Assembly: GCA_018266175.1 (NCBI GenBank)
Contig: JAFEAY010000010.1
Span: 53,942-117,941, forward strand
Direction: 5' to 3'
Source of the DNA: Candidatus Babelota bacterium
GTDB taxonomy: Bacteria > Babelota > Babeliae > Babelales > RVW-14
DNA: 64,000 bases
Positions 1-59,440 of the stretch are shown in pieces. The notes beneath the pieces were generated by a model. The model did no database searches. It was not told where the DNA came from and worked only from the letters and a program-made list of their open reading frames with translations. A program made the translations under genes and the position numbers. The stretch's first letter is position 1. Every line of letters begins with the position of its first letter.

Positions 1-89
1 AACGTGTATCAATTCAGGGAAACATTACATCTGAACAACGAAAAATTTTATTCCAAGAGCTCAATGCAAAACTTTTTGGAAACATATCG

Positions 90-3000
90 ATGCAAGACCA
101 ATTAGAAAATTTCCAACTACCCGTTAATAAATTGGCACGGCAATTAAAAGACTGGATCTATCTGGTCAAAACAGGAACACCGCAAGAAGCGCAAGAAGCT
201 CTTGCAAAGCTCTGGCTTGTATTTAACTTTATGCCGCCTCAAGCGGATTATGCTGAACGCATTCATCAGCTGCAAACATATGCTGCTCTGATTATTTCAA
301 ACCTGCTTGAAAACTTAACTATTAACTCAGGAGACGAAAATTATCTCGGAAAACGACTCTTCCCAATCCATTTTCTTGAAACAATCCTCTTTCAGCACCA
401 TAAAGACTCCGAAGGGCTTTATGGCGATTCTGTTATAAAACTGTGGACACAAATGAAAGAAGAGAAAAAGGGTAACGAAGCAGTAACAACAACAGATACA
501 TACGGGAAGCTAGCAGGGATTCTGACTTCTCGTGGATTAACTCAAGATCTCAAGGATACATGGAAAGTTTTTATAGATTCACTTGATAACACCGGTAAAT
601 CGATGCAAGAAATCATGAAAGTAAGCAAACTCCAGCGCCAGATTGCTTGGCTTGAAAAGAGTATGCAAGCTCTTAAACCTGGGAGTAAAAATGATGAACT
701 TCGACAGGAACTTCAAAAAGACTTAGATAAGGTAAAAGCAGAACTTGGAGCTCAAACTATTTCAGATGATGACAACAATAAAGCCAAGTTTTATCAAATG
801 CTCATAACGTTAGGCAAGCTTGATATGCTCGATTTATGGCTGCATACCTCATTTCCTAACGCTTTAAACGATTTAGCTCAATTAATTAAAGAATTTGATG
901 ATTCACAAGCATTTTTAATAGAACTTTTGAAATACAAACAGCTCATTGAAGATGTTAACGTAGCCGGCTTTGAAGATCCCACAACTTTTCTGAAAAATTG
1001 GAACGCCTTTCAAGCTGACCCAGGAAATATTTTAGATTATTTTATTCAAGACAACCTCTTTATGGAAAAGTTTAAGAATGCTCAAGGCCTTGGAAAGCTT
1101 GCAGCACTAGGTGTGATGGAAGAGCTGGTTACAAAATTTGATGCCGCGATCAAAGCGGTTACCGGCAGCACAAAATTTATAGTCACCGAACTTGCCGATG
1201 GTAAATCTTTTAATGCAGTTCGCGCAGATGAAGCATTGTTAAAAAAGCAAATCAGCACACAAAAAGATAAAATTTTTGCTTTTCATCTGATGCTTGAAAA
1301 ATATCTTAAACTGCTGCAAAAATGGTATCAACTTTCACTAGATAGCTCTATTCAGTGGATATTTGCAGGACAAAACCTCAATCAGAGTATAACATCACAA
1401 CTCGAAAAAGCAGACAAGCTGTTAAAAGAAACGCTCATAAAAAAAACGAATGACGCTGAACAGCTACAAGCAAAAGTTCATGCTGAAGGTTCTGCTATTG
1501 GTTCTACACAAGCAGGGCAAGCCGCAGACAGACTTGCCGCAAATACACATGAAGAACTTTTTACCTTCACCCATCAAAGCCTTCTGATTGTAATCACAAA
1601 ATTTATGAACCAATATGGTTTTAAAGATGAACAGCTACCACAAACAGTTCAAACACTTGATAAACATATTGCTGGTAAGAAAAAGAACTGGGGAATAATT
1701 GAAGGTGGATTGCAATATGGAAGTTATAGACCAAGCCTTGTTGGAACTCTCTTTAAAAATAATATACTCACACGAAAGTATAATTTCCCACAAGGGCTCC
1801 ATAGTGCCGCAGTAAAACTTATCTATAACACTAAAACAGAGCAATGCTCACTCACCTTCAGTATGTTTGGGGCAGACCACTATGCTCGATGGGAAAGATG
1901 TACAGATTATGTAGAATATGAAGGATTAAATCAAAACATAGGCGAAAAACCTCGTACTACTTTTATGACAAAAGGATTTGATGCTACATGGTCTCTTGAT
2001 AGCAAAAATCCAGAATCAACAATAATCAAACTACAAGCTATCATTCAAACTTTGTGCGCTATTGCTGGTGCTAATGATCAAAGCAGCGCCAGTCATTACT
2101 TTGATGATAGTCAGATGAATAAAGTGATAGAGCTTTGCGCAACCAAATACCCACGTATTCACTGCTTCTTTAATTTAGCCCTTGACAACTTAACTCAAGA
2201 TAATATTAGTAATAATACAATTAATCATCTCATGAAAATTGCAAGTAAACTTCTTGAACCAGGTGGGGAATACGCTCTTAATTCAGAAATTTATTTGTAC
2301 CGCTTGCCCTTAGCTCCTGATATGTATGGTGAAAATAAAGAAGTATTTTATGGTATTACCCCGAATAATTTCTATGAACTTGCAGGAACAGGAACACGTG
2401 ATATTAAAAGATATAAACATGCTAATATTCGAGCAATTCTTATAAAGCTTATTGAGCTAAAAGACGCATTAAACGCTGATCAAAAACTAGCATTTCTCAA
2501 CCTGATTGAAGCTCATCAAGAATATATCGTTGATCAGTGGGATACTATAAATATTCCGGAAACGCGAACTTACAATTATCAAAAACATCAATATGATACG
2601 ACACCCGAAGTTAGTTTCAAAGCATTTATTGATGCACTTCCTGCCGACCTACAAGCTCGCAAAACTGAAATACTCAGGCAATTGGTTACACAGAGCGATT
2701 ACGGCAATAACTCAGCTGTTTATAATGCCTATTACAGAAACGCTCCCTATGGTGATCCAAAAGTTCAACCACTTTCAGGCGCAGACCTAAAGCAATTTTT
2801 TGTACAACGAGGCAGTAACATTTTACGCACCCCTGCATGCACAGCTCTGTACCAAAAAGTCGAGAACACCATGAATCCAAAAGAAAAAGAAACTTTTGCT
2901 CGCCTGGTTGGAGATAGTCTTAGCCACAAAGATTATTTGATACGCGAAAATGCAAACACTTTATTTGCAACATTACAGCAAGACAATAGCCTTCAAAATA

Positions 3001-3845
3001 CACTTGCTCCATATCTTGAAAAAATTAATACCGTTAAGCTCAAGCAACTCGATACGCTTATTGCAAAAATAGCAACTGATGAAACTGATGATTCTTTTGA
3101 GAGAGCACTCAAGTTAATCGAAACAATAACCGGTATACTTGGTTATCGTAGCCTGCTCTCGTCTATTTTAGATCGTAGTGAAAACAAAAATATAAAAACG
3201 AATTTTGCTCAGTTCAAAAATAATCTCTCAAGCCCAGAGTGGCGAAATAAGTTAGATGACGTCGTTAAAGCTTACTTTCGTAAGAAGCTTGAAGATGGGT
3301 ACTTTATACCTAAACCTGCTTATAGTCGTTATAGTTCAAATACAACAAACCCTCTTATTTTGTACATAATCGAAACCATTTACCAAAAATTCCCTGATGA
3401 TCAGAATCTTATCAACTTGGCTGATAAGCAGCTTCTTGATTCAATCAAACATGATGTTCTTGATACTATTATTAAAACCAAGCAAGACGAAAAAGATCTA
3501 TTTGTACAACTCTGTGTCACTGCGCTTAGGAGAAAGAAGGCTTTGGAATTGGAAGGCTTTGCTAAGAATACTATGGCATCATATTCTATTACGCCCATTG
3601 AAAAACTATTTGCAACACTCATCTTCCTTGATGCAGAAGTTAGATCAGCAGAGTTTTTAAGAAGTTTAATTAATGAGGCAAAAGGAGTACTTTCAAACCT
3701 TTATTCTAACTATAGAGATAATGATCTGGCAAAAAAAGTACTTCAAAAGATCATATCAATCTGGGATCGTCTGAGTTTTATACAGACACCACCTGGATAT
3801 ACAAAAAAAATGCTCGAAGATCTCATTAACCCCCATGCATACTGA
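90..3845 (+). CDS. Very large (>=1251 aa) alpha-helical hypothetical protein, effector-like. The reading frame is open from nt 3 to 90, so the gene probably starts upstream of the window.
   Basis: Long uninterrupted ORF. It shares a ~70-aa module (HYARWERCTDYVEYEG...GFDATW...) with the 7686..9872 protein. No stop codon in frame between window start and the first Met. Confidence 0.6.
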   Translation: MQDQLENFQLPVNKLARQLKDWIYLVKTGTPQEAQEALAKLWLVFNFMPPQADYAERIHQLQTYAALIISNLLENLTINSGDENYLGKRLFPIHFLETILFQHHKDSEGLYGDSVIKLWTQMKEEKKGNEAVTTTDTYGKLAGILTSRGLTQDLKDTWKVFIDSLDNTGKSMQEIMKVSKLQRQIAWLEKSMQALKPGSKNDELRQELQKDLDKVKAELGAQTISDDDNNKAKFYQMLITLGKLDMLDLWLHTSFPNALNDLAQLIKEFDDSQAFLIELLKYKQLIEDVNVAGFEDPTTFLKNWNAFQADPGNILDYFIQDNLFMEKFKNAQGLGKLAALGVMEELVTKFDAAIKAVTGSTKFIVTELADGKSFNAVRADEALLKKQISTQKDKIFAFHLMLEKYLKLLQKWYQLSLDSSIQWIFAGQNLNQSITSQLEKADKLLKETLIKKTNDAEQLQAKVHAEGSAIGSTQAGQAADRLAANTHEELFTFTHQSLLIVITKFMNQYGFKDEQLPQTVQTLDKHIAGKKKNWGIIEGGLQYGSYRPSLVGTLFKNNILTRKYNFPQGLHSAAVKLIYNTKTEQCSLTFSMFGADHYARWERCTDYVEYEGLNQNIGEKPRTTFMTKGFDATWSLDSKNPESTIIKLQAIIQTLCAIAGANDQSSASHYFDDSQMNKVIELCATKYPRIHCFFNLALDNLTQDNISNNTINHLMKIASKLLEPGGEYALNSEIYLYRLPLAPDMYGENKEVFYGITPNNFYELAGTGTRDIKRYKHANIRAILIKLIELKDALNADQKLAFLNLIEAHQEYIVDQWDTINIPETRTYNYQKHQYDTTPEVSFKAFIDALPADLQARKTEILRQLVTQSDYGNNSAVYNAYYRNAPYGDPKVQPLSGADLKQFFVQRGSNILRTPACTALYQKVENTMNPKEKETFARLVGDSLSHKDYLIRENANTLFATLQQDNSLQNTLAPYLEKINTVKLKQLDTLIAKIATDETDDSFERALKLIETITGILGYRSLLSSILDRSENKNIKTNFAQFKNNLSSPEWRNKLDDVVKAYFRKKLEDGYFIPKPAYSRYSSNTTNPLILYIIETIYQKFPDDQNLINLADKQLLDSIKHDVLDTIIKTKQDEKDLFVQLCVTALRRKKALELEGFAKNTMASYSITPIEKLFATLIFLDAEVRSAEFLRSLINEAKGVLSNLYSNYRDNDLAKKVLQKIISIWDRLSFIQTPPGYTKKMLEDLINPHAY

Positions 3846-5508: not shown

Positions 5509-5536
5509 GGCCCCCGGGTTGTAATTCCCGGGGGCC
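5509..5536. repeat. GC-rich palindromic hairpin element (ggcccccggg-ttgtaatt-cccgggggcc) flanked by TGAAATT direct repeats; copy 2
   Basis: Perfect 10-bp stem. The loop is the reverse complement of copy 1. Flanks: aaTGAAATT|hairpin|tTGAAATTa. Confidence 0.7.
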
Positions 5537-5555: not shown

Positions 5556-7637
5556 TTATTTTTGTTTATCGAGTTCTTCTTTTAGATGATCCATGAGCGT
5601 CTTTTTAAAACCCATTTTAAGGCTATTTTTATGCTGATCATAAAATTCTTGGGCTTCTTCTTTAGCATTGTTATCAGCACGTGCAATAACTCTAAAATAA
5701 TTTTTTAAAATATTAGTATTCGAAGGATTACTAGAATCTGCGGCATAAGTTTTATGAGAAGCAGGATCAATTATAGTAAGCCGGTTTTCTCCTACCGGCA
5801 AGATAATTTGATGATCTTTAATTAATAGAAGACATCTCATAAGCTCTGCTACAACTTTAAGCTCATTAGTTTGCTGTATTCTTATGAACATATTCTGCAA
5901 TGTAGGTCCACTTGCAAGAATATTTCTGACAATCTTATCAGTATAACCTAGAAGCTCATTGAGCGATTTGTTAGAACGTAATTCGTTCGCATTAATATAC
6001 TGTAAAAGCCATCCAAGGTAATCAATAAATTTAAATGCTCTTACTCTTGCATCAGAATGCTTAGAAGCAGCATCAATAATGTCTTGATTACTATCTATCG
6101 CTGCAATCAACTTTATAACTTCAAGTAAGCCATTCAACTCAATCGATTGTTTTTCAACTACTTTAACTTCATCCTTAATTTCACTAATAGATTCATTAAA
6201 TAATCGATCCTCTTCTTCCTCACGTCGACGTTCATCTTCCTTACGAAGATTTTCTTCTTCTTCTTCTTTACGTTGACGACGTTCTTCTTCTTCTCGCTGA
6301 AAACGCTCTTGTGCTTCTTTTCGATCTTTTTCTTCAAGAGCAGCTAATCTTTTTTTCTCTTCTTCTAGGCGAATACGCTCTTTTTCTTCTAGCTGAAAAC
6401 GCTGTTCTTCTCGTTCACGTTGTTCATTCTCACGTCGCTTACGATCTTCTTCGTCACGCTGACGACGCACTTCTTTTTCATGACGCTTCTTAATACGAAT
6501 TACTTCTTGTTCGAGCCCTATTATCTCATCCATTAAAAATCGTGCATATAATGTTGCAAGAACTTCTGCTCGAACTTGTTGCCCTGTTAAACTATAACCC
6601 CTACCTAGATTTGCTTCAGTGAAAAAAACTTGATAGCTTACCCCATCTATAATTAATTCTTTTGCAGATTGCTTATCAGAAGGAATTGGCACAGCAGCTT
6701 CTCCTGGAAACCGTATTTTTTTACTGTTGGTATAATCTCTGCAAGCAAGCAAAATATTAGTTAAAGCATTTTGAGATGTGATTAAAGGCATTCTAAATTG
6801 CGTATGGCTCAATCCATTGAGAAGGTAATAAAGTGCCCCATCAAGCGAAGGCTGATATTGATTTTTAACTCCATGTCCTTGTCCGATATACCAGAGAATA
6901 GCTGTTGCAGCCCACCATAAAAAGTTTGGCTCGTAAAATCCATTTTCAAGAAGCGAAAATGCAAGGCGTGAGCCAGGACTTCTCCATCCAATTTTTGGAA
7001 GAATAGCTTTTAAAATTTCAGCATCTTGTTTTTGCCCATTTTCTATACAAGACTTTAAAACATCTGTATAAGACCTTATCGTATCCACTCCCACATCACT
7101 TGTGTCGTCAGAAATCCAACTAACAGCATGATGATAAGAATGTTGGTCTGCCAAAGATCTTTGCACTTTAAGAATTTTTGCATGGCTATACTTCTCAAGC
7201 AGGCTATTCACAAGCTTCTCACAAGCACTTTTAATCACCTGAATTGCTTGTTCAATATTTTGAGCATCAATATTTCTTAATGCATCTCGGTTATGACCAT
7301 CAATAAGAGAACTTCTAAATACTTTAACCTCGTTGACTAGATCAGCATCTTGCTGGGAAATATCATGCTCAAGAGTATTAAGTATTTCATTTACTTTTTG
7401 ACTAAAATTTCGATAATCAATTTTGGGTTCAATTTTTATCTCTTCAATCTCAACAGCATCACCGCGTAGATGCTGTGAAATAGCCTCAAGCCCATTCTTC
7501 AAGGCTTCAAGCTTAGCCCTCAACTGAACAAGGTTTTGATGCAATCCTTGAATGCGGTCGCTCAACTCATCAGCCGCCAGTGAGCATACCAAGCTCATGG
7601 TTATTGCCATTAAAAATATTTTACCATACTGCTTCAT
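5556..7637 (-). CDS. Secreted protein with an N-terminal conserved leucine-heptad module and a central E/R/K-rich charged single alpha-helix region
   Basis: Signal peptide MKQYGKIFLMAITMSLVCSLAA. Motif LHQNLVQLRAKLEALKNGL is shared with the 7686..9872 protein. ~110 aa of RRQRDEEDRKRRENEQREREEQ... residues. AGAGGAG ribosome-binding site upstream. Confidence 0.6.
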   Translation of the reverse strand: MKQYGKIFLMAITMSLVCSLAADELSDRIQGLHQNLVQLRAKLEALKNGLEAISQHLRGDAVEIEEIKIEPKIDYRNFSQKVNEILNTLEHDISQQDADLVNEVKVFRSSLIDGHNRDALRNIDAQNIEQAIQVIKSACEKLVNSLLEKYSHAKILKVQRSLADQHSYHHAVSWISDDTSDVGVDTIRSYTDVLKSCIENGQKQDAEILKAILPKIGWRSPGSRLAFSLLENGFYEPNFLWWAATAILWYIGQGHGVKNQYQPSLDGALYYLLNGLSHTQFRMPLITSQNALTNILLACRDYTNSKKIRFPGEAAVPIPSDKQSAKELIIDGVSYQVFFTEANLGRGYSLTGQQVRAEVLATLYARFLMDEIIGLEQEVIRIKKRHEKEVRRQRDEEDRKRRENEQREREEQRFQLEEKERIRLEEEKKRLAALEEKDRKEAQERFQREEEERRQRKEEEEENLRKEDERRREEEEDRLFNESISEIKDEVKVVEKQSIELNGLLEVIKLIAAIDSNQDIIDAASKHSDARVRAFKFIDYLGWLLQYINANELRSNKSLNELLGYTDKIVRNILASGPTLQNMFIRIQQTNELKVVAELMRCLLLIKDHQIILPVGENRLTIIDPASHKTYAADSSNPSNTNILKNYFRVIARADNNAKEEAQEFYDQHKNSLKMGFKKTLMDHLKEELDKQK

Positions 7638-7685
7638 ACCAACTCCTCTATAAATCAGTTATTTTTATACGCCCCAATTACTCAC

Positions 7686-9872
7686 TTAATTACTCGGTTT
7701 ATATTTCTCAACAAACTTCTCTTGATTGGAATCAATCGATGGATGTCGGATTGTTCTGAGATAATCAATCGCTTGTCGTGGCGACATCCCGTGCCGTGCA
7801 ATCAACCACACCGCAAGCATTGTTCCAGTACGACTTTGGCCAAACTGACAATGAACAACCGCCCTTTTTTTTGTCTTATGCGCTTGGTCAACCGCTTGCA
7901 AAAATTCTTGAATTTGAGCAGGTTCTGGTGTATCGCCACTTGGAATATAAAGAAATTTATCAACAACACTTGTTTGACCTTGTTTGCCCAATGTACCAGG
8001 CCACCAAGCTTCGTTATTTAAATCTTTATTTAACGAAACTATCAAGCCAATCCCCAACCATTCAAGCATTTTTATATCACGAGTACTGGCTGGCTGCTGC
8101 ATGCCGGCAAGAAGCTGAGGTGCAACCCAGGAAAAATTTTGTGTTGCAAGCCTGAATGCAAGTACCGCATCAAGCGCATGAAAATCATGACCCTGCTCTC
8201 GTAAATAATTAAGCGCTTCAAGGCATTGATCTATAAAATGAGTATATTTAAGATCTTTTTGATAAAGATGATTAAATTCTCGCTCTTTTTGTTGGTTCGT
8301 AAATGGACAAACGTCATAAATAAATTGAGTTAACGTTGCTGGCAGCTGTACCGGCTTAAGGGCTTGATATGCTTTTTTAAACAGATCAAGCGTTGGTTGC
8401 CGAGTAATTAAATCATGCGCTTGGTTTGCAAAAAATTGCTCCGCAAGAGCTTGAGCGTCTGGAACTGTACCTAAGCTGAGTGGCACATACAAAGCAGACA
8501 AACTGGTTGCATTTGCTTTGGTCAGGGCATCACCACGCGTCAGGCTATAGCCACCAACACTATCAATTATTTTTTTAACTTGATCTTTTAAATCGATAAT
8601 ACTTCCTGCTGCCTGTAGGATCACCTTAAGCTCGGTGCTTGCACCAAGACCAAATCTCCCCCAGCTTCCACGACGGGCAAAAAAGTCAGCATGCTGCTCA
8701 ATCAGGTTCAGCAAACCCACCCACGTTACTTGGCTGAACGTTTCATACCGCTTGTCTTTGACTATTTTTTGTACAATATTTTGAATCAGCCCTCCGCGAA
8801 AACTGCTCACCGCGCAAACTTTTTTTACCGGATCTTGAGTAACATCTTGATCGTACACATCGAGTTCATGCTCAGTTAACGTTTTGTAATCAGGGATAAC
8901 GACTTCGTCAGGGGTTTTGGCAAAGTCTATTGGTGATGGCGTATGACAGGCTTTAAAATAAAAAAGATCGGCTTGTGCTGCGTACTCTGGTTTTTGGAAA
9001 AATCGCTTGATGATTTCAAAAACTTTTTGCCAATCATTATTCCCGTCATCACTGGCCTTAATCACATCAAGGGCTTTTGTTAAAAAAAAGTTCGGGCGTT
9101 GACCATTCAGTGAACTATCCAAAATATAGCCTTTTAAACGCTCCACCAAGTTTGTATCTTTTATGATTTTTTTGAGTGCATCAAAAGCTTCACCGCTTTT
9201 TTTCATCACTGGACCCGCAACTATTTTTTCTTTGCCAGCAGAATCCGTAACTTTTTGTGTAAGACCTCCCGTTGCTTGAGCAAGTAATAAAGTAATTTTG
9301 GCCAGAACATCAAGCTGGGAGCTGTACCACTGATTCTCTTGAAATGGCCAAGCAAAGGTAACACCGTTATGGTCGATGCTCATAACCGCGCCACTTACAT
9401 CCATCAGTGCTGCAATCATCTGCGCATAGTCGGCAACTTTTTCCCAACGAGCATATTCGTTAGGGCCTGAATAGTGAATGGTAATGACGCCTTGCTTGGC
9501 AGCTCGATTGTGCTTAAATTCAAGCGTTGCTTGAGTTCCAGGCGTTAACTGATAGGTAATAGTTTGAGAAAATTCACCGGTTGTATCATCAAAAACATCG
9601 GAAGCTAGAGTAACCGTAACACCATCAACTTTAAGGTTAATAAACTTTTTAATGTTACTTGCAACAAAATAAGGAGCTTTGCCTTGATTCAAATTTTCGT
9701 AAATAGAGATTAGACCATTTTGAAGCGCTTGCAGCTTGTGCTTGAGGCTTGTCAAAGAGGCATGCAGATCTGCAAGCTTTGTAGGAAGGTCATCGGCAGC
9801 AGTCAGCGTGGGGCTGCATGCAAGGGTTATAAGAAAGAGTGTGGTGAGAACAGACTCATAGAGCTTGGCCAT
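7686..9872 (-). CDS. Secreted effector-like protein with a C-terminal dual-specificity (Cys-based) protein phosphatase domain
   Basis: Signal peptide followed by the shared module LHASLTSLKHKLQALQNGL. C-terminal motif VHCQFGQSRTG (CX5R P-loop) with an upstream Asp. NEYARWEKVADY module shared with the 90..3845 protein. Start set at MAKLYES, which has an AGGAGA ribosome-binding site. Confidence 0.65.
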   Translation of the reverse strand: MAKLYESVLTTLFLITLACSPTLTAADDLPTKLADLHASLTSLKHKLQALQNGLISIYENLNQGKAPYFVASNIKKFINLKVDGVTVTLASDVFDDTTGEFSQTITYQLTPGTQATLEFKHNRAAKQGVITIHYSGPNEYARWEKVADYAQMIAALMDVSGAVMSIDHNGVTFAWPFQENQWYSSQLDVLAKITLLLAQATGGLTQKVTDSAGKEKIVAGPVMKKSGEAFDALKKIIKDTNLVERLKGYILDSSLNGQRPNFFLTKALDVIKASDDGNNDWQKVFEIIKRFFQKPEYAAQADLFYFKACHTPSPIDFAKTPDEVVIPDYKTLTEHELDVYDQDVTQDPVKKVCAVSSFRGGLIQNIVQKIVKDKRYETFSQVTWVGLLNLIEQHADFFARRGSWGRFGLGASTELKVILQAAGSIIDLKDQVKKIIDSVGGYSLTRGDALTKANATSLSALYVPLSLGTVPDAQALAEQFFANQAHDLITRQPTLDLFKKAYQALKPVQLPATLTQFIYDVCPFTNQQKEREFNHLYQKDLKYTHFIDQCLEALNYLREQGHDFHALDAVLAFRLATQNFSWVAPQLLAGMQQPASTRDIKMLEWLGIGLIVSLNKDLNNEAWWPGTLGKQGQTSVVDKFLYIPSGDTPEPAQIQEFLQAVDQAHKTKKRAVVHCQFGQSRTGTMLAVWLIARHGMSPRQAIDYLRTIRHPSIDSNQEKFVEKYKPSN

Positions 9873-10244: not shown

Positions 10245-11072
10245 TCATTTACCTTTTTTTGGCTTGCTCCATTTTGCAAAGCCACGAGATTTTGCAATCG
10301 CATAAAAATCTTCTTCTGGCTGGTTTTCTTCTTCGTCATCTTCTTGGCTCTCGTATCCACCTTCTTGCTCATCATCCTCTGATTCATAGGCATCGTACTG
10401 ATCATCAGACCAAGAGAGACCCTGGGCATAATGATCAGCAAGCTGATCATCAATTTCTTGGATAAGCTCATCAAAGCGCGATTGGTCTTTTTCAAACTCA
10501 AGCTCTTGCTCCTCTAATTGCTCGAGCAATCTTCGTTCTTTTCTTCGTTGCTTATAAGCTCTTTTTCTTTGTGCTCTATCTTTTTTTGTTGCAAAAAACT
10601 CCCGCTCATCTTCCCATTCTTCTTCTAAATAATCTTGGTAGTCCTCTTGCATATGAAGACGAACATTTTGTTTATTTCCTGCTTGAGATAAAGAACTCCT
10701 TGCGCACTCATGCTGTTTACAAGACTGTAAGACCGATGAAATAACAAAATACCTCAAGCGTTTGACACGTTTTTTACTATTTTTACTCAATGCATCAAAT
10801 AAATTTTGCCTTGCACTCTCAATGATTTGATTGCAAGAGCTACAGTTTATGCATGGCAATAAGCTCTTAATCAAATGTTGAATAGTATCTTGTGTATGGT
10901 TTGGAGCAATAGTTTTAAGACGACCTCTTAGTATTTCTGCATACGCTTGACCGTTTAACCCACAAGACTTATAAGCGTTTTCCAATCTTTTTGGGCTTGC
11001 AAAAAGCAGCCCATCAAATGAGTACACTGCAAGTAACACTACGTTGAAAACCATGGAGTACAACAACTTCAT
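10245..11072 (-). CDS. Secreted hypothetical protein with basic KR-rich stretches and a strongly acidic D/E tail
   Basis: Signal-like N-terminus. KKRVKRLRY and KKDRAQRKRAYKQRRKERR basic blocks, then ESEDDEQEGGYESQEDDEEEN. Confidence 0.5.
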   Translation of the reverse strand: MKLLYSMVFNVVLLAVYSFDGLLFASPKRLENAYKSCGLNGQAYAEILRGRLKTIAPNHTQDTIQHLIKSLLPCINCSSCNQIIESARQNLFDALSKNSKKRVKRLRYFVISSVLQSCKQHECARSSLSQAGNKQNVRLHMQEDYQDYLEEEWEDEREFFATKKDRAQRKRAYKQRRKERRLLEQLEEQELEFEKDQSRFDELIQEIDDQLADHYAQGLSWSDDQYDAYESEDDEQEGGYESQEDDEEENQPEEDFYAIAKSRGFAKWSKPKKGK

Positions 11073-13747: not shown

Positions 13748-14089
13748 TTATGGCTGCTTGCCCAACTCAGTCTTGAGATGCGTTAGCTGTCCTGCAAGTG
13801 ATCCAAGCTTTGACTTCAGTTCAGTGAGCTTTGTTTCTAAATCAGCGATTGTTGTTTGTAATACGCTTGGTTGAGTTACTTTTGCTGCTTCAGCTGCAGA
13901 TTTGTTAGTATTCTTAGTGCCTTTATTTCTCTTTTTCTTATTCCTATTCTTTCTTTCTTTTTTTTGCTGATGTTTTGATTTTTTCTCAGCAGCATAAACA
14001 CTTTCCTGTGCAACAAAACAGCTTGCTCCCGCAATCGCTACAAGAAGAGCAACTCTAAGCCCCAAGCATTTGATCATTCTTTGCATCAT
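13748..14089 (-). CDS. Small secreted lysine-rich protein with a C-terminal leucine-heptad coiled coil
   Basis: Signal peptide. KKSKHQQKKERKNRNKKKRNKGTKNTNK basic block. C-terminal ...IADLETKLTELKSKLGSLAGQLTHLKTEL. Confidence 0.45.
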   Translation of the reverse strand: MMQRMIKCLGLRVALLVAIAGASCFVAQESVYAAEKKSKHQQKKERKNRNKKKRNKGTKNTNKSAAEAAKVTQPSVLQTTIADLETKLTELKSKLGSLAGQLTHLKTELGKQP

Positions 14090-29656: not shown

Positions 29657-30055
29657 TCAAGAAGGAATACGAACGAGCTTCATCAAAATATTTAAAACCT
29701 TTCCCGCTGCAGTTATCGCATCAAGAGCCTCGCTTTGATCGATAGAAAATTGATCATCAGGATAACGAGTACGCATCTCGTAAGGACTTAGATAATCGAT
29801 ATATTTTTCAAGTACCATTAAATGCTGATCATACTTTTTGCACTCTTCTAAGAGTCCTTCTAAGTCATGAGTTTTTGGAATTTTTTGATGTTGATACACC
29901 AAAAACGCTTTTAATGCTTTCTCTGCACACTGATGAGCATGATAAGCTACTATACCCAATATTTCATTATCATTCTCTTCATCACCGGCAACTAGCTTCT
30001 GCGCTGCCCTTAAATCACCTCGTGCTTTTATAATCCAATCTCTATGCCCTGGCAT
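29657..30055 (-). CDS. hepT: HEPN-domain protein (toxin component of an MNT-HEPN module)
   Basis: IVAYHAHQCAEKALKAFLV HEPN signature. Overlaps the upstream NTase gene by 14 nt. Confidence 0.8.
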   Translation of the reverse strand: MPGHRDWIIKARGDLRAAQKLVAGDEENDNEILGIVAYHAHQCAEKALKAFLVYQHQKIPKTHDLEGLLEECKKYDQHLMVLEKYIDYLSPYEMRTRYPDDQFSIDQSEALDAITAAGKVLNILMKLVRIPS

Positions 30056-30383
30056 ATAAGCACTTTCCTTCTTTGTTTACATAATAGGGAAGCGTTGCAA
30101 TCTCATTAATGCGTTCTGCAAATTCATCTTTGGTATATACTGCTAAGTCTTTGTATATCCCCAAACCTCGTAACGCTGCATAACCAGCTCTTACTCTTGC
30201 ATGACTTCTCTCTTCGGAGCTCTCAACGACTACAAGAAGATCAAGGTCACTATCTTCGCGTTGATCTCCACGGGCATAAGAACCAAAAAGATATATCTCT
30301 AGCGGATCATAGGTACGTACTAAACGCCTTACTACTTCTTCAATAATTTCCGGTGTAATCATACTATCCTCACAGCGTAACAT
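30042..30383 (-). CDS. mntA: Minimal nucleotidyltransferase (MNT), antitoxin/AMPylase partner of the HEPN protein
   Basis: LFGSYARGDQREDSDLDLLVVV nucleotidyltransferase motif (GS-x9-13-DxD). Confidence 0.8.
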   Translation of the reverse strand: MLRCEDSMITPEIIEEVVRRLVRTYDPLEIYLFGSYARGDQREDSDLDLLVVVESSEERSHARVRAGYAALRGLGIYKDLAVYTKDEFAERINEIATLPYYVNKEGKCLYARA

Positions 30384-30430
30384 TCCCAACCTGATTAATT
30401 TCTTTTGTTGCGTTAAAAATTCTATTTCAT
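30378..30430. repeat. 53-bp perfect direct repeat, copy 2 (mntA 5' region)
   Basis: Identical to 29582..29634, including the first codons (TTG-GGA-ATG-TTA). Confidence 0.9.
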
Positions 30431-38824: not shown

Positions 38825-39781
38825 ATGAACAAAAAAATACATTCATTCTGCTTGATAATCTTTATTTTCATTACTGCATCCCTTAGAGCCAGCGGTTATC
38901 GCGTTTCAGTTGAAATCTCATTAAATCAAGAAGAAATAGTGAACCCGCTTAAAGACAAACAAAGTGCTATAAAAAAATTTTTCCGTACCATAGCCAACCC
39001 AATAACAGCTTTAGACCAAGTATACAAACAAAAGCTCAAGAGCATTCTTGAGATGCTTGCTTCAAATGGATTAGGAAAAAAGGGTTGGGGAACATTGAAT
39101 CAAACGAATAAACCCTTTCACATTACATTGGCCTATATTGATGACCTTCTTGATCAAAAAGACCTCACAGAGTTTAAGCAAGTTTTAGAAGGAGCGGCTC
39201 AACAAATCGCTGTTCAATTTCCAAATGGATTAGGTGATTTTTGTATCCAGGGAGTCCCAGAGTTTATTGGCGACAAGGGCTGGATTGCATATCAAAATAT
39301 CAGTGACCCTTATGGGAAACTCAAAAAAGTTGCTCGCATAATATCTGATAAACTCAAAGCCAAAACTCATCATCGTATCAATAAAGATCACCCACTATTT
39401 CTAGCACATGTTTCAATAGGGCTCGTTGGAGATATGCTGTACCCACCAAAAGCACCTCAAAAGACAAACCCTTTTTATCTTCAATTACTTCAAAACCATG
39501 CGGCTAAACCGCATAACTCACTTTTATCAGGCATACAAAATGCAATGGTCACCAAAGGACTCATTGATAGTAAAATTAAATTTAATATCAAAAGCTTTAC
39601 GTTAAAAATAGCCGATCTTCGCAATCCTGATAGAATAGAGCACTCTGAAATCATCTATGAATTGCCATCAGGTCTTGCCGCACAGCTTATTATTCTGAAA
39701 AGCAAACTTGAACTTTTGAAATCAAAGCTTATATCGCTCAAAGAGCAGCTCAAAAAACTCACGAAACAACTTATACAATAA
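38825..39781 (+). CDS. Secreted 2H-phosphoesterase-fold protein (LigT-like) with a C-terminal leucine-heptad coiled coil
   Basis: Two H-x-T/S-x motifs (FHITLAY and AHVSIG). Signal peptide. C-terminal LKSKLELLKSKLISLKEQLKKL. Confidence 0.6.
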   Translation: MNKKIHSFCLIIFIFITASLRASGYRVSVEISLNQEEIVNPLKDKQSAIKKFFRTIANPITALDQVYKQKLKSILEMLASNGLGKKGWGTLNQTNKPFHITLAYIDDLLDQKDLTEFKQVLEGAAQQIAVQFPNGLGDFCIQGVPEFIGDKGWIAYQNISDPYGKLKKVARIISDKLKAKTHHRINKDHPLFLAHVSIGLVGDMLYPPKAPQKTNPFYLQLLQNHAAKPHNSLLSGIQNAMVTKGLIDSKIKFNIKSFTLKIADLRNPDRIEHSEIIYELPSGLAAQLIILKSKLELLKSKLISLKEQLKKLTKQLIQ

Positions 39782-58122: not shown

Positions 58123-58722
58123 TTATGGTGTTTCTATCTTTTTCAAAAGCACGTAAGCTTCTTTAACTTTTTTCTCACGCTCAATCTTCCAACTCACGGT
58201 AATCTCAGGTCGTGAAGCATTCGGGTTTGCAGCTACAAAGCGCTGAATAAAACTCAAGTAGGCCCATTCTTGCTTGGGGCATATTGTATTCGCTTTTCGT
58301 GCTTCTTCCCAAAAATCTGCAAATTCTTGATACGTTGGTGGTTTACCCTCAAGCCATCGCGCCCTGATCCAATCGTGCCCAACCGCAGTAAAGTGGAAGT
58401 GCTCGCCAATGAACTTTTTAAAAAAGAGACGTGTCGCCAAGTCGTTTTTATGACTGCCGTATAAAATCAAGCTTTCTGGTTTGAGCAACACAACTTGATG
58501 CTTTTTTGCTCGAGAAATGTCGGGGATTACAGGCTCCGCTAAAATTTTTCCAGTTTCTATAAAATGCATAATTCGGGCAATAATGGCAGCTTTCATACCC
58601 GCATGAGGAAGCTTGAGAGCTAAACAGACATGTTTAAGCTCAGCCATGCTCATGTAATGCTGCGCATCATTAAGAGCTTGTTGATCATGCTTGCTTAAAA
58701 GTGGAAACTTTTTCATTATCAA
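58123..58722 (-). CDS. SAP-domain-containing hypothetical protein
   Basis: N-terminal MSMAELKHVCLALKLPHAGMKAAIIARIMHF fits the SAP bihelical motif. The rest is uncharacterised. Confidence 0.5.
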   Translation of the reverse strand: MIMKKFPLLSKHDQQALNDAQHYMSMAELKHVCLALKLPHAGMKAAIIARIMHFIETGKILAEPVIPDISRAKKHQVVLLKPESLILYGSHKNDLATRLFFKKFIGEHFHFTAVGHDWIRARWLEGKPPTYQEFADFWEEARKANTICPKQEWAYLSFIQRFVAANPNASRPEITVSWKIEREKKVKEAYVLLKKIETP

Positions 58723-59117
58723 ATACTCAGTGTATTTTCAACTTTTTGAAGAGCTTGTTCTAAGATAGGATAATACAGTTTAATGTGTGCATAAATTTCA
58801 TCTGCAAGGTTTTCATCATAAGTATGCGACGTCAAGTTTCGGTCTCTTAACATTTTAAGCCACATCTTGTCATCGTCGATGAGCCCACCAGCATACGCTT
58901 CCTGCAAAACATCTTTAGGATATCTTACCTCAACACCTTTTGCTTCTAAAATGCGTTTTAACAGTTTCCAGAAAAGCTCAATCGTAAATTCAAATCGTTG
59001 AATCGATGCATCAATATTTCCTCGATCTTCATCCATGGGCTTACGGACCATGACACCAAGTGCTTGTAGGGCTTTTTTTGCCTGTTGCAAAGATTGTTCT
59101 ATGCGACTGTCTCTCAT
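58719..59117 (-). CDS. Nucleotidyltransferase substrate-binding protein, HI0074 family (HEPN fold)
   Basis: FEFTIELFWKLLKRILEAKGV...RDRNLTSHTYDE. 4-nt overlap with the upstream NTase gene. Confidence 0.8.
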   Translation of the reverse strand: MRDSRIEQSLQQAKKALQALGVMVRKPMDEDRGNIDASIQRFEFTIELFWKLLKRILEAKGVEVRYPKDVLQEAYAGGLIDDDKMWLKMLRDRNLTSHTYDENLADEIYAHIKLYYPILEQALQKVENTLSI

Positions 59118-59440
59118 TTTTTTTCCTTTTGATAAAGAATCACCCCATCAGAAACTATAGACTTTTTCAATGGATTATTATCGGCAAGTCGATCAAACCT
59201 CACGCAATCAATTTTAAGCAAAGTATCCGCCTTATCAACAAGATCAAGTACTAAATACCAATCATCATCGCTTGCTTGAGGACAGACAACTGCAAGGTCT
59301 ATATCAGATCTATTCTTATGATCTCCACGAGCTCGAGAGCCATAAAGATAAATTATTTCGATAAACGGAAGCTTAGTTAAATCTTTAAAAAATTGTAACG
59401 ATCTAATTTCTTCTTGATAAGAGGTCATACTATTCCTCAA
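59114..59440 (-). CDS. Minimal nucleotidyltransferase, HI0073-like
   Basis: LYGSRARGDHKNRSDIDLAVV nucleotidyltransferase motif. Confidence 0.8.
   Translation of the reverse strand: MRNSMTSYQEEIRSLQFFKDLTKLPFIEIIYLYGSRARGDHKNRSDIDLAVVCPQASDDDWYLVLDLVDKADTLLKIDCVRFDRLADNNPLKKSIVSDGVILYQKEKK

Follow-up and report, generated by a model that had tools for sequence, protein, structure and literature searches.

A conserved leucine-zipper module behind the predicted signal peptides of two adjacent, otherwise different Dependentiae proteins

Results

Two neighbouring genes on the minus strand of the stretch of DNA analysed here (‘the window’: 64,000 nucleotides of contig JAFEAY010000010.1, Candidatus Babelota bacterium, assembly GCA_018266175.1) encode proteins of different build that share a 33-residue leucine zipper, ‘the module’, directly behind signal-peptide-like N-termini. 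The gene at 5556-7637 encodes a predicted exported helical protein of 693 aa (‘693-type’), laid out as signal peptide, N-terminal zipper, helical domain, long E/R/K-rich helix and helical C-terminal part. Two features back its start codon at 7637: an AGGAG lies 5 nt ahead of it, and codons 1-20 are under purifying selection (pN/pS, the ratio of non-synonymous to synonymous differences per site from Nei-Gojobori-type counts, of 0.08-0.21). The gene at 7686-9872 encodes a predicted exported phosphatase protein, in which signal peptide and zipper are followed by a beta/alpha middle region and a C-terminal dual-specificity phosphatase (DSP) domain. A preliminary description of this DNA had both open reading frames (ORFs) correctly placed on the minus strand, but gave the second product 729 aa; read from the ATG at 9872 it has 728. 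Although a longer TTG-initiated version of this ORF extends to 9941, the ATG start agrees with an identical NCBI protein, ‘dual specificity protein phosphatase family protein [Candidatus Dependentiae bacterium]’ (P0004; P-numbers denote related proteins and L-numbers related loci), and with the orthologue starts MAKLY/MVKFY. The name of this identical protein places the window in the Dependentiae (TM6).

The signal-peptide-like segments occupy residues 1-22 of the 693-aa protein (7572-7637, minus strand, MKQYGKIFLMAITMSLVCSLAA, recognised by hydrophobic h-region score) and residues 1-26 of the 728-aa protein (9795-9872, minus strand, MAKLYESVLTTLFLITLACSPTLTAA). Both have a basic n-region, 12-16 hydrophobic residues and small residues at -3/-1, the likely cleavage sites being SLA|A or LAA|D in the former and TAA|D in the latter. 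The zippers run from L25 to L57 (7467-7565, minus strand, LSDRIQGLHQNLVQLRAKLEALKNGLEAISQHL) and from L29 to L61 (9690-9788, minus strand, LPTKLADLHASLTSLKHKLQALQNGLISIYENL). Since each begins 2-4 residues past the predicted signal-peptidase site, the exported protein, once mature, would have the module at its very N-terminus. The signal-peptide sequence itself is variable among members, and it is the helix behind it that is conserved. Many members have a Cys near the end of the h-region, which is missing in P0006 and P0007 (these have IIPHGPLTAVDD), and no member shows a canonical lipobox, the -1/-3 positions not fitting one.

Within the module, Leu or Ile fills ten consecutive a/d heptad positions with perfect 4-3-4-3 spacing, following the consensus L-x3-[IL]-x2-LH-x2-L-x2-L-[KR]-x-KL-x2-L-x2-GL-x2-I-x3-L. 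Every member has exactly ten core positions, all taken by L or I/V at 4-3 spacing over at least four heptads of continuous helix. In alignment A3 (12 module sequences, 35-88% identity) the invariant columns are L12, L19, H20, L23, L26, L30, L33, G36, L37 and L44, with K29 present in 11/12; H33, K42 and G49 of the 693-aa zipper are invariant across the family. The conserved residues outside the core lie at flanking positions: His (e), Lys/Arg (g, e, g) and Gly (g). Both ends are sharp, with an Asp/Glu cap before and a helix breaker with Gly/Asn/Pro after (RGD, NQG or GIE), and length and end points are identical across members. AlphaFold2 (AF2) predicts one uninterrupted helix over the module, at residues 24-57 of the 693-aa and 29-61 of the 728-aa protein.

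That the two N-termini resemble each other had been proposed in the preliminary description, and the comparisons bear this out. When the 693- and 728-aa proteins are compared by BLASTP, one alignment alone is significant, between residues 2-93 and 3-93 (32% identity, E=4e-8); outside the N-termini all matches have E>1, so that at this level the rest of the two proteins is indeed unrelated. With either N-terminus as query, phmmer recovers the other at about 1e-6 from the 557 six-frame ORFs of the window. A degenerate DNA pattern of the invariant columns matches the window exactly twice, at 7468-7565 and 9691-9788, where shuffles predict 0 matches, and it also matches related loci exactly where expected. 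Lastly, because heptad repeats give spurious similarity, zippers were compared with their ten core residues fixed and the 23 others permuted (2000 permutations). Against a hidden Markov model (HMM) built from 693-type zippers only, the 728-aa zipper scored 27.8 bits (permutation mean 6.7, standard deviation 4.0, z=5.25, 0/2000 permutations as high), and the 728-aa protein together with six other members gave z=5.3-7.5, again with 0/2000. As the match stays position-specific with the core fixed, the similarity represents homology rather than a generic coiled coil lacking positional conservation, which had been named beforehand as a possible outcome. The module is thus a shared, homologous and positionally conserved element on otherwise different, effector-like proteins.

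The bodies that follow the module differ in kind. The phosphatase assignment proposed for the 728-aa protein holds: residues 578-718 (7719-8141, minus strand) match PF22784 (PTP-SAK, 9.2e-21) and PF00782 (DSPc, 3.3e-13), both above gathering thresholds, and the nearest PDB relative by profile is DUSP23 (4.6e-25). The catalytic HCx5R motif is intact (HCQFGQSR, VVHCQFGQSRTG; HCxxGxxR in form), so that both the fold and the motif of a DSP are present. The 693-aa protein had been described as a charged single-helix protein, of which the long E/R/K-rich helix stands; its AF2 model (mean predicted local distance difference test, pLDDT, 66) has besides it a helical domain at residues 70-345 (pLDDT about 75-92) before the E/R/K-rich helix at 350-460, and a helical tail after it. 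This protein had no Pfam, NCBIfam or PDB match, and fold searches with its model returned nothing specific. The AF2 model of the 728-aa protein was poor (pLDDT 47) and was left out of fold searches.

The module is real, undescribed and restricted to a narrow Dependentiae clade. Searches with the full-length proteins brought up few relatives, every one of them in a metagenomic assembly. A module profile run without word filter against 1.84 billion representative proteins gave 14 matches at E<=1e-3, which on inspection comprised 10 true members (50%-identity clusters, from related metagenomic contigs) and 4 unrelated tandem-repeat proteins (P0010-P0012, P0018). A word-indexed protein search with module alignment A2 yielded 13 candidates, none of which scored. 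The DNA pattern matched 51 times in one genome per each of 185,579 prokaryotic species and 101 times in 241 million metagenome records, with no true member in either; these 152 chance matches lay in wrong frames or 7-residue tandem repeats, were without HMM support and included no Dependentiae. No Pfam-A or NCBIfam model covers the module, and no paper in the literature collection searched joins Dependentiae and leucine zippers. Module-bearing proteins do occur beyond the two paralogues, although a widespread tag seems an overstatement, given the narrow clade and the two or three such genes in a sampled region: two in the 64-kb window, and 3-5 side by side in L004 and L163, counting a weak, diverged form on giant proteins.

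Five kinds of protein carry the module. The first is a helical family of 600-955 aa, comprising the 693-aa protein, P0002, P0003, P0013, P0015, P0017 and a 613-aa protein of L004, with P0014 (711 aa) as a marginal member whose body matches P0017 at E=4.8e-4 and whose other matches are to the module only. The second consists of phosphatases of ~700 aa (P0004-P0007 and a 698-aa protein of L163, in which LH has become LY), and the third is a 594-aa protein of L163. The fourth, P0016 (L160 1946-3868), has the module internally, about 460 residues after its signal peptide, with up to four ubiquitin-like domains in between (two of them clear Pfam ubiquitin-family matches, 2e-30); its zipper is followed by the start of a 693-like body, and its locus is unlinked, although from the same samples as L005 and L006. 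P0016 is in effect a eukaryote-like ubiquitin fusion in a bacterium, and a RING-finger protein is encoded nearby in L161. The fifth is a diverged form, ADELTDKLAALKDKGLIPLKAKLGQLK..., at the N-termini of 1,880-2,119-aa giants in L004, L163 and L164 that join PPDK_N and DSP domains. This form has a one-residue insertion and a proline; it matches the 693-aa N-terminus by BLASTP at E=9.5e-5, and its HMM match is weak.

In their C-terminal half, the giants share homology with the body of the 728-aa protein. These secreted proteins (L004 13079-18721; L163 1768-7854; L164 1566-7925) carry a DSP phosphatase at the C-terminus besides a domain of PPDK_N type (ATP-grasp dikinase), and small stand-alone DSP genes adjoin their genes. 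We take the pairing of dikinase and DSP phosphatase, by an association of our own, to recall the glucan-water-dikinase and laforin/SEX4 logic of glucan phosphorylation. In the window, a very large gene cut by the window start (1-3845, plus strand) is the positional counterpart of the 1,592-2,119-aa PPDK_N dikinase-phosphatase proteins of relatives; the window covers its 3′ part only, the N-terminus lying outside.

Conservation is concentrated in the module. Of the 11-13 columns that are invariant when the 693/613 helical family is aligned at full length, 10 belong to the 33 module residues. For the 693-type gene, the module had a pN/pS of 0.12-0.13 (window against L001 and L005, pS 0.53-0.55), compared with 0.35-0.51 for the rest of the protein (window against L005, pS 0.38-0.54). 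For the phosphatase, the corresponding values were 0.14-0.26 in the module (pS 0.33-0.48) and 0.33-0.41 in the next 88 codons (63-150; pS 0.40-0.43). The module is therefore the most constrained part of both proteins, and its pS of 0.33-0.55 indicates that conservation acts on the protein and is old, rather than the product of recent gene conversion. Recent conversion between the two window genes was rejected on a further count, their modules being 46% identical to each other and 75-89% identical to those of orthologues. An RNA-level cause of the conservation was ruled out by the many synonymous changes.

Behind this fixed leader, bodies are exchanged at the gene cluster. The L001 phosphatase is 82% identical to that of the window, and the L001 gene in the 693 position is 92% identical over residues 1-60 and unalignable beyond, the DNA breakpoint between L001 and the window falling after codon ~60, just past the RGD that closes the module. 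The more distant L005 (phosphatase 73%) nevertheless keeps the entire 693-type body, at 68% identity. Among phosphatases, P0006 (L005 3896-6085) and P0007 (L004 8923-11028) are at least 90% identical up to residue ~400, then fall to 19-48% and have different phosphatase domains. The phosphatase domain of P0007 is nearer to that of the neighbouring giant (46%) than to those of its orthologues (about 35%), which suggests domain exchange between neighbouring genes. It would seem that duplication and recombination have moved the module between neighbouring genes of one effector-like cluster, the breakpoints lying where the module ends.

Zippers of the same design also occur at C-termini. A scan of the window for Leu-rich heptad runs detected exactly four proteins: the 693- and 728-aa proteins and two others, encoded at 13748-14089 and 38825-39781, that likewise have signal-peptide-like N-termini. 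In the latter two, an all-leucine zipper of 33 residues ends 4 and 2 residues before the stop (13763-13861, minus strand, LQTTIADLETKLTELKSKLGSLAGQLTHLKTEL then GKQP; 39674-39772, plus strand, LAAQLIILKSKLELLKSKLISLKEQLKKLTKQL then IQ). Wherever such a zipper occurs in 149 kb of clade DNA, its core counts exactly ten positions. The preliminary description had grouped these C-terminal K/L heptads with the N-terminal module; they exist, and share its design, length and LKxKL centre, but homology with it could not be demonstrated. Scored against an HMM of the N-terminal class they did no better than their own permutations (z=0.5-1.4, p about 0.1 at z=1.4), and they are missing the H and G signature, although among themselves they show modest position-specific similarity (leave-one-out z=1.7-3.6). 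Set against the N-terminal module, the C-terminal zippers do fit generic convergence.

The proteins that bear C-terminal zippers are themselves varied. That of 113 aa (13748-14089, minus strand) has a signal peptide and a very lysine-rich stretch (KKSKHQQKKERKNRNKKKRNKGTKNTNK) ahead of its zipper, and an orthologue lies beside ClpB in L001 (1776-2111). That of 318 aa (38825-39781, plus strand) contains two HxT/S-type motifs (HITLAY, AHVSIG) and has a weak Pfam match to 2′-5′ RNA ligase/2H phosphoesterase (E=0.17). In L163 (12037-14379, minus strand), a 780-aa signal-peptide protein with a DnaJ (J) domain has a ten-leucine zipper as its exact end (…LFEKLNSLQHCLIQLKGKLKDLGSKLNTLKGQL*), in a cluster shared with four module-bearing genes.

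The 728- and 693-aa genes are co-oriented and separated by 48 nt. A perfect GC-rich hairpin of 10 G-C pairs (GGCCCCCGGG…CCCGGGGGCC, 5509-5536, minus strand) stands directly 3′ of the 693-aa gene, in a region of 37% G+C. It probably marks the end of a two-gene 728-693 unit, although its weak T-tract makes terminator function uncertain. As no terminator-like site was found within the 48-nt gap and this strong hairpin follows the second gene, the two genes probably form one transcription unit. Adjacency of phosphatase and helical-protein genes recurs in L001, L002, L005, L006, L004 and L163. The spacer (7638-7685, including the AGGAG) and the first ~13 codons of the 693-type gene (7590-7637) are 98-100% identical in three genomes (alignment A4 columns 101-150) whose phosphatases differ by 18-27% in protein sequence, and pS over codons 1-20 of the 693-type gene is 0.27-0.29, about half that of the module. 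This conserved spacer and start may act in translation initiation or coupling.

A 275-aa signal-peptide protein, ClpB and the 113-aa protein are encoded upstream on this strand, and a DUF4143 ATPase gene follows downstream. The 275-aa protein (10245-11072, minus strand) is kept upstream of the phosphatase in all relatives (272-339 aa). Its C-terminal half is very acidic and includes a short acidic amphipathic stretch, SRFDELIQEIDDQLADHY; it was weighed as a partner of the basic-flanked zippers, and nothing supports such a pairing yet. In relatives, an AAA-ATPase_like/PDDEXK_9 gene that is absent from the window adjoins the phosphatase cluster (L001 5904-7628; L005 2031-3710; L163 1-755), in L001 and L005 sitting between the 275-aa-type gene and the phosphatase, and DUF4143 ATPase genes border the cluster in the window as well as in L001 and L164. 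Both kinds of gene may be mobile and mark a variable region. Elsewhere in the window, two HEPN/nucleotidyltransferase gene pairs (29657-30389, HEPN with NTP_transf_2; 58719-59440, NTase_sub_bind/HepT-like with Polbeta; both minus strand) are probable toxin-antitoxin modules.

Discussion

Targeting, oligomerisation and secretion recognition were the roles put forward for the helix in the preliminary description; the function that we favour, with a probability of roughly 0.55, is that of a specific coiled-coil association or docking module. The narrow a/d Leu stripe, the sharp ends and the single predicted helix favour helix-helix association over membrane binding or a linear sorting motif, while the invariant His, Lys/Arg and Gly that flank the core at e/g contact positions suggest a specific interface, more than a greasy stripe. 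In this reading, in which signal-peptide cleavage, coiled-coil formation, the oligomeric state, the existence of a partner and the effector role of the cargoes are all inferred, the module would, after Sec export, zip with like helices or with one conserved partner helix. Such zipping would build oligomers of the cargo, bring the co-transcribed phosphatase and helical protein together as a pair, or tether both to one partner, the cargoes being the helical protein of unknown function, the DSP phosphatases and the giant dikinase-phosphatase. Leu at both a and d reportedly favours three- or four-stranded bundles (a result attributed to Harbury et al., 1993), and the all-Leu core of the module would favour such a bundle.

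Several observations weigh against association of this kind. Most e/g positions are basic, a pattern that would deny simple parallel homodimers favourable salt bridges, and 182 kb of clade DNA yielded no acidic partner helix. Inspection of the e/g positions by eye found no electrostatic complementarity, whether 693-type zippers were set against phosphatase-type ones or the N-terminal class against the C-terminal. The invariant Gly is unusual for a stable coiled coil. AF2 confidence in the module helix is modest (pLDDT about 50-74 for the 693-aa protein, <50 for the 728-aa protein), although low-to-moderate confidence is expected of an isolated helix. Cleavage sites were judged by eye from the -3/-1 rule. 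Finally, the family is small, and the co-occurrence of module and cargo could reflect shared ancestry of one gene cluster rather than a functional logic.

The zipper might instead be a secretion or host-delivery leader, read after Sec export at an outer- or host-membrane step (by a type II system, for example), or a host-targeting signal. In function it would then be an analogue of the RxLR and PEXEL motifs behind the signal peptides of oomycete and Plasmodium effectors. This is rather unlikely in our view, although not without attractions: in all members but one the zipper lies directly behind the signal peptide, it is the most conserved part ahead of fast-evolving or swapped bodies, its invariant non-core H, K and G suggest recognition by one conserved partner, and the cargoes look host-directed (DSP phosphatases, ubiquitin-like domains). 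No type II secretion signal of such a kind is known, and the zipper is a regular 33-residue heptad, not a short linear motif. The one exception in placement counts against a leader too: with its module about 460 residues behind the signal peptide, P0016 speaks against an export signal that is strictly N-terminal. The cultured members of the Dependentiae (TM6) parasitise protists from within the cell; up to 44% of their proteins carry signal peptides and are presumed to act on the host (PMC6561590, PMC4378268). In this phylum, such proteins with eukaryote-like domains are presumed to reach it (PMC4378268, PMC6561590), and a type II secretion system belongs to the core genome of the phylum (PMC4776705), both of which favour a delivery leader. 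However, with 2-5 module genes per sampled region, compared with about 44% signal-peptide proteins in a cultured relative (PMC6561590), the zipper is hardly a general export tag.

A bolder combination of association and delivery, which we consider speculative and improbable, would make fixed-length ten-leucine zippers a docking code for the exported effectors of this clade, needed if these are to enter the protist host as complexes. N-terminal tags would then belong to the phosphatases, the giant dikinase-phosphatase and the helical family, and C-terminal ones to the J-domain protein, the 2H-phosphoesterase-like protein and the small lysine-rich protein. Tagged proteins would co-assemble through their helices or dock onto one receptor helix. 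Such a code would be a bacterial counterpart of RxLR/PEXEL leaders, its invariant His possibly serving as a pH switch in the food vacuole.

It is at least as doubtful that the hydrophobic N-terminus is an uncleaved signal anchor and the zipper an oligomerising, membrane-proximal stalk of periplasmic proteins tethered to the inner membrane. The hydrophobic segments of 12-16 residues, the zipper within a few residues of them, a cleavage that is only inferred and the Cys near the end of the h-region in many members would all suit an anchor. However, the small -3/-1 residues (SLA|A, TAA|D, LTA|V) suit signal peptidase I, a transmembrane helix would be longer than these short h-regions, P0006 and P0007 have no such Cys and no member has a canonical lipobox, and the P0016 module lies far from the N-terminus.

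That the similarity is historical, a remnant of one tandem duplication of the genes or their 5′ ends and without special function, seems very improbable. The two genes are adjacent, most members lie side by side in one cluster and the family is limited to a narrow clade, as would suit a remnant; yet the module is the most constrained stretch (pN/pS 0.12-0.26) even though synonymous divergence is saturating, is kept at 35-50% identity, its invariant non-core residues included, on bodies that no longer align, and is also present at the unlinked locus of P0016. Convergence from leucine heptads and K/Q/E-rich composition is scarcely credible for the N-terminal module, for although heptads do give spurious matches (the repeat proteins P0010-P0012 and P0018 caught by the profile, the 51 and 101 chance matches to the DNA pattern), this is countered by the core-fixed permutations (z=5.3-7.5, 0/2000), the invariance of H, K and G at e/g, and the identical length and ends.

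How the signal-peptide proteins of Dependentiae act on the host is essentially unknown, in a phylum that is widespread and almost uncultured (PMC6561590, PMC4378268). Conserved and easy to recognise, the helix offers a handle on a small set of probably co-acting exported proteins, and predicts protein-protein interaction. A demonstrated role in delivery or assembly would make it the first signal of this sort reported for the phylum; were it an oligomerisation helix only, it would provide a useful, ordinary domain annotation.

Comparison with known systems

Structurally, the module most resembles the designed and natural all-Leu coiled coils (CoilSer, GCN4-pLL and the CLZ of cyclic-nucleotide-gated (CNG) channels), which likewise have Leu at a and d over 4-5 heptads, polar or charged residues elsewhere and a continuous helix. 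There is, however, no significant sequence relationship: the closest PDB sequences were 1cos (CoilSer, E=0.047) and 3swy (CNG-channel trimerisation zipper, E=0.81), neither significant, and the Pfam CLZ match of P0013 was weak (E=0.35). Unlike these coiled coils, the module has an invariant His and Gly at e/g and lies at the predicted mature N-terminus of exported bacterial proteins, and its oligomeric state is a prediction only. A bZIP domain was rejected, since a zipper 2-4 residues past the cleavage site leaves no room for a basic region and no Pfam bZIP match was found. Also rejected was a SNARE-like element of the IncA or LegC type, which has about 60 residues and 16 layers with a polar 0-layer (Q/R), whereas the module has 10 all-Leu/Ile layers, no polar layer and no Pfam SNARE match.

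Braun lipoprotein (Lpp), a trimeric coiled coil, is similar in placing a heptad helix directly behind the signal peptide of a diderm envelope protein. It differs in that module proteins have large enzymatic cargo and are without the C-terminal Lys for murein attachment. Identity as a lipoprotein or Lpp was rejected, the lipobox Cys not being conserved (P0006/P0007) and no Pfam LPP match being found.

In architecture, the nearest parallels are the RxLR-dEER leaders of oomycetes and the PEXEL of Plasmodium, a class defined by delivery into the host cell, which share with the module a signal peptide, a conserved N-terminal element, swappable effector bodies and the setting of an intracellular parasite of eukaryotes. 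A conserved element behind the signal peptide on diverse bodies is what the module genes display, with P0016 as the exception. RxLR and PEXEL are nevertheless linear motifs of 4-5 residues, found in hundreds of genes per genome, as opposed to a 33-residue heptad helix in a handful of genes in the regions sampled. The module is moreover bacterial, and internal in one member.

For the mosaic structure of the cluster, a further parallel is provided by families of surface or secreted proteins, such as the lipoproteins of Borrelia, in which conserved leaders, mainly promoter, signal peptide and lipobox, recombine among linked paralogues. As in those leaders, the module genes have a common 5′ end on divergent bodies, with mosaic breakpoints at the end of the shared part; unlike them, they have a variable signal peptide, and the conserved part is the helix that follows it.

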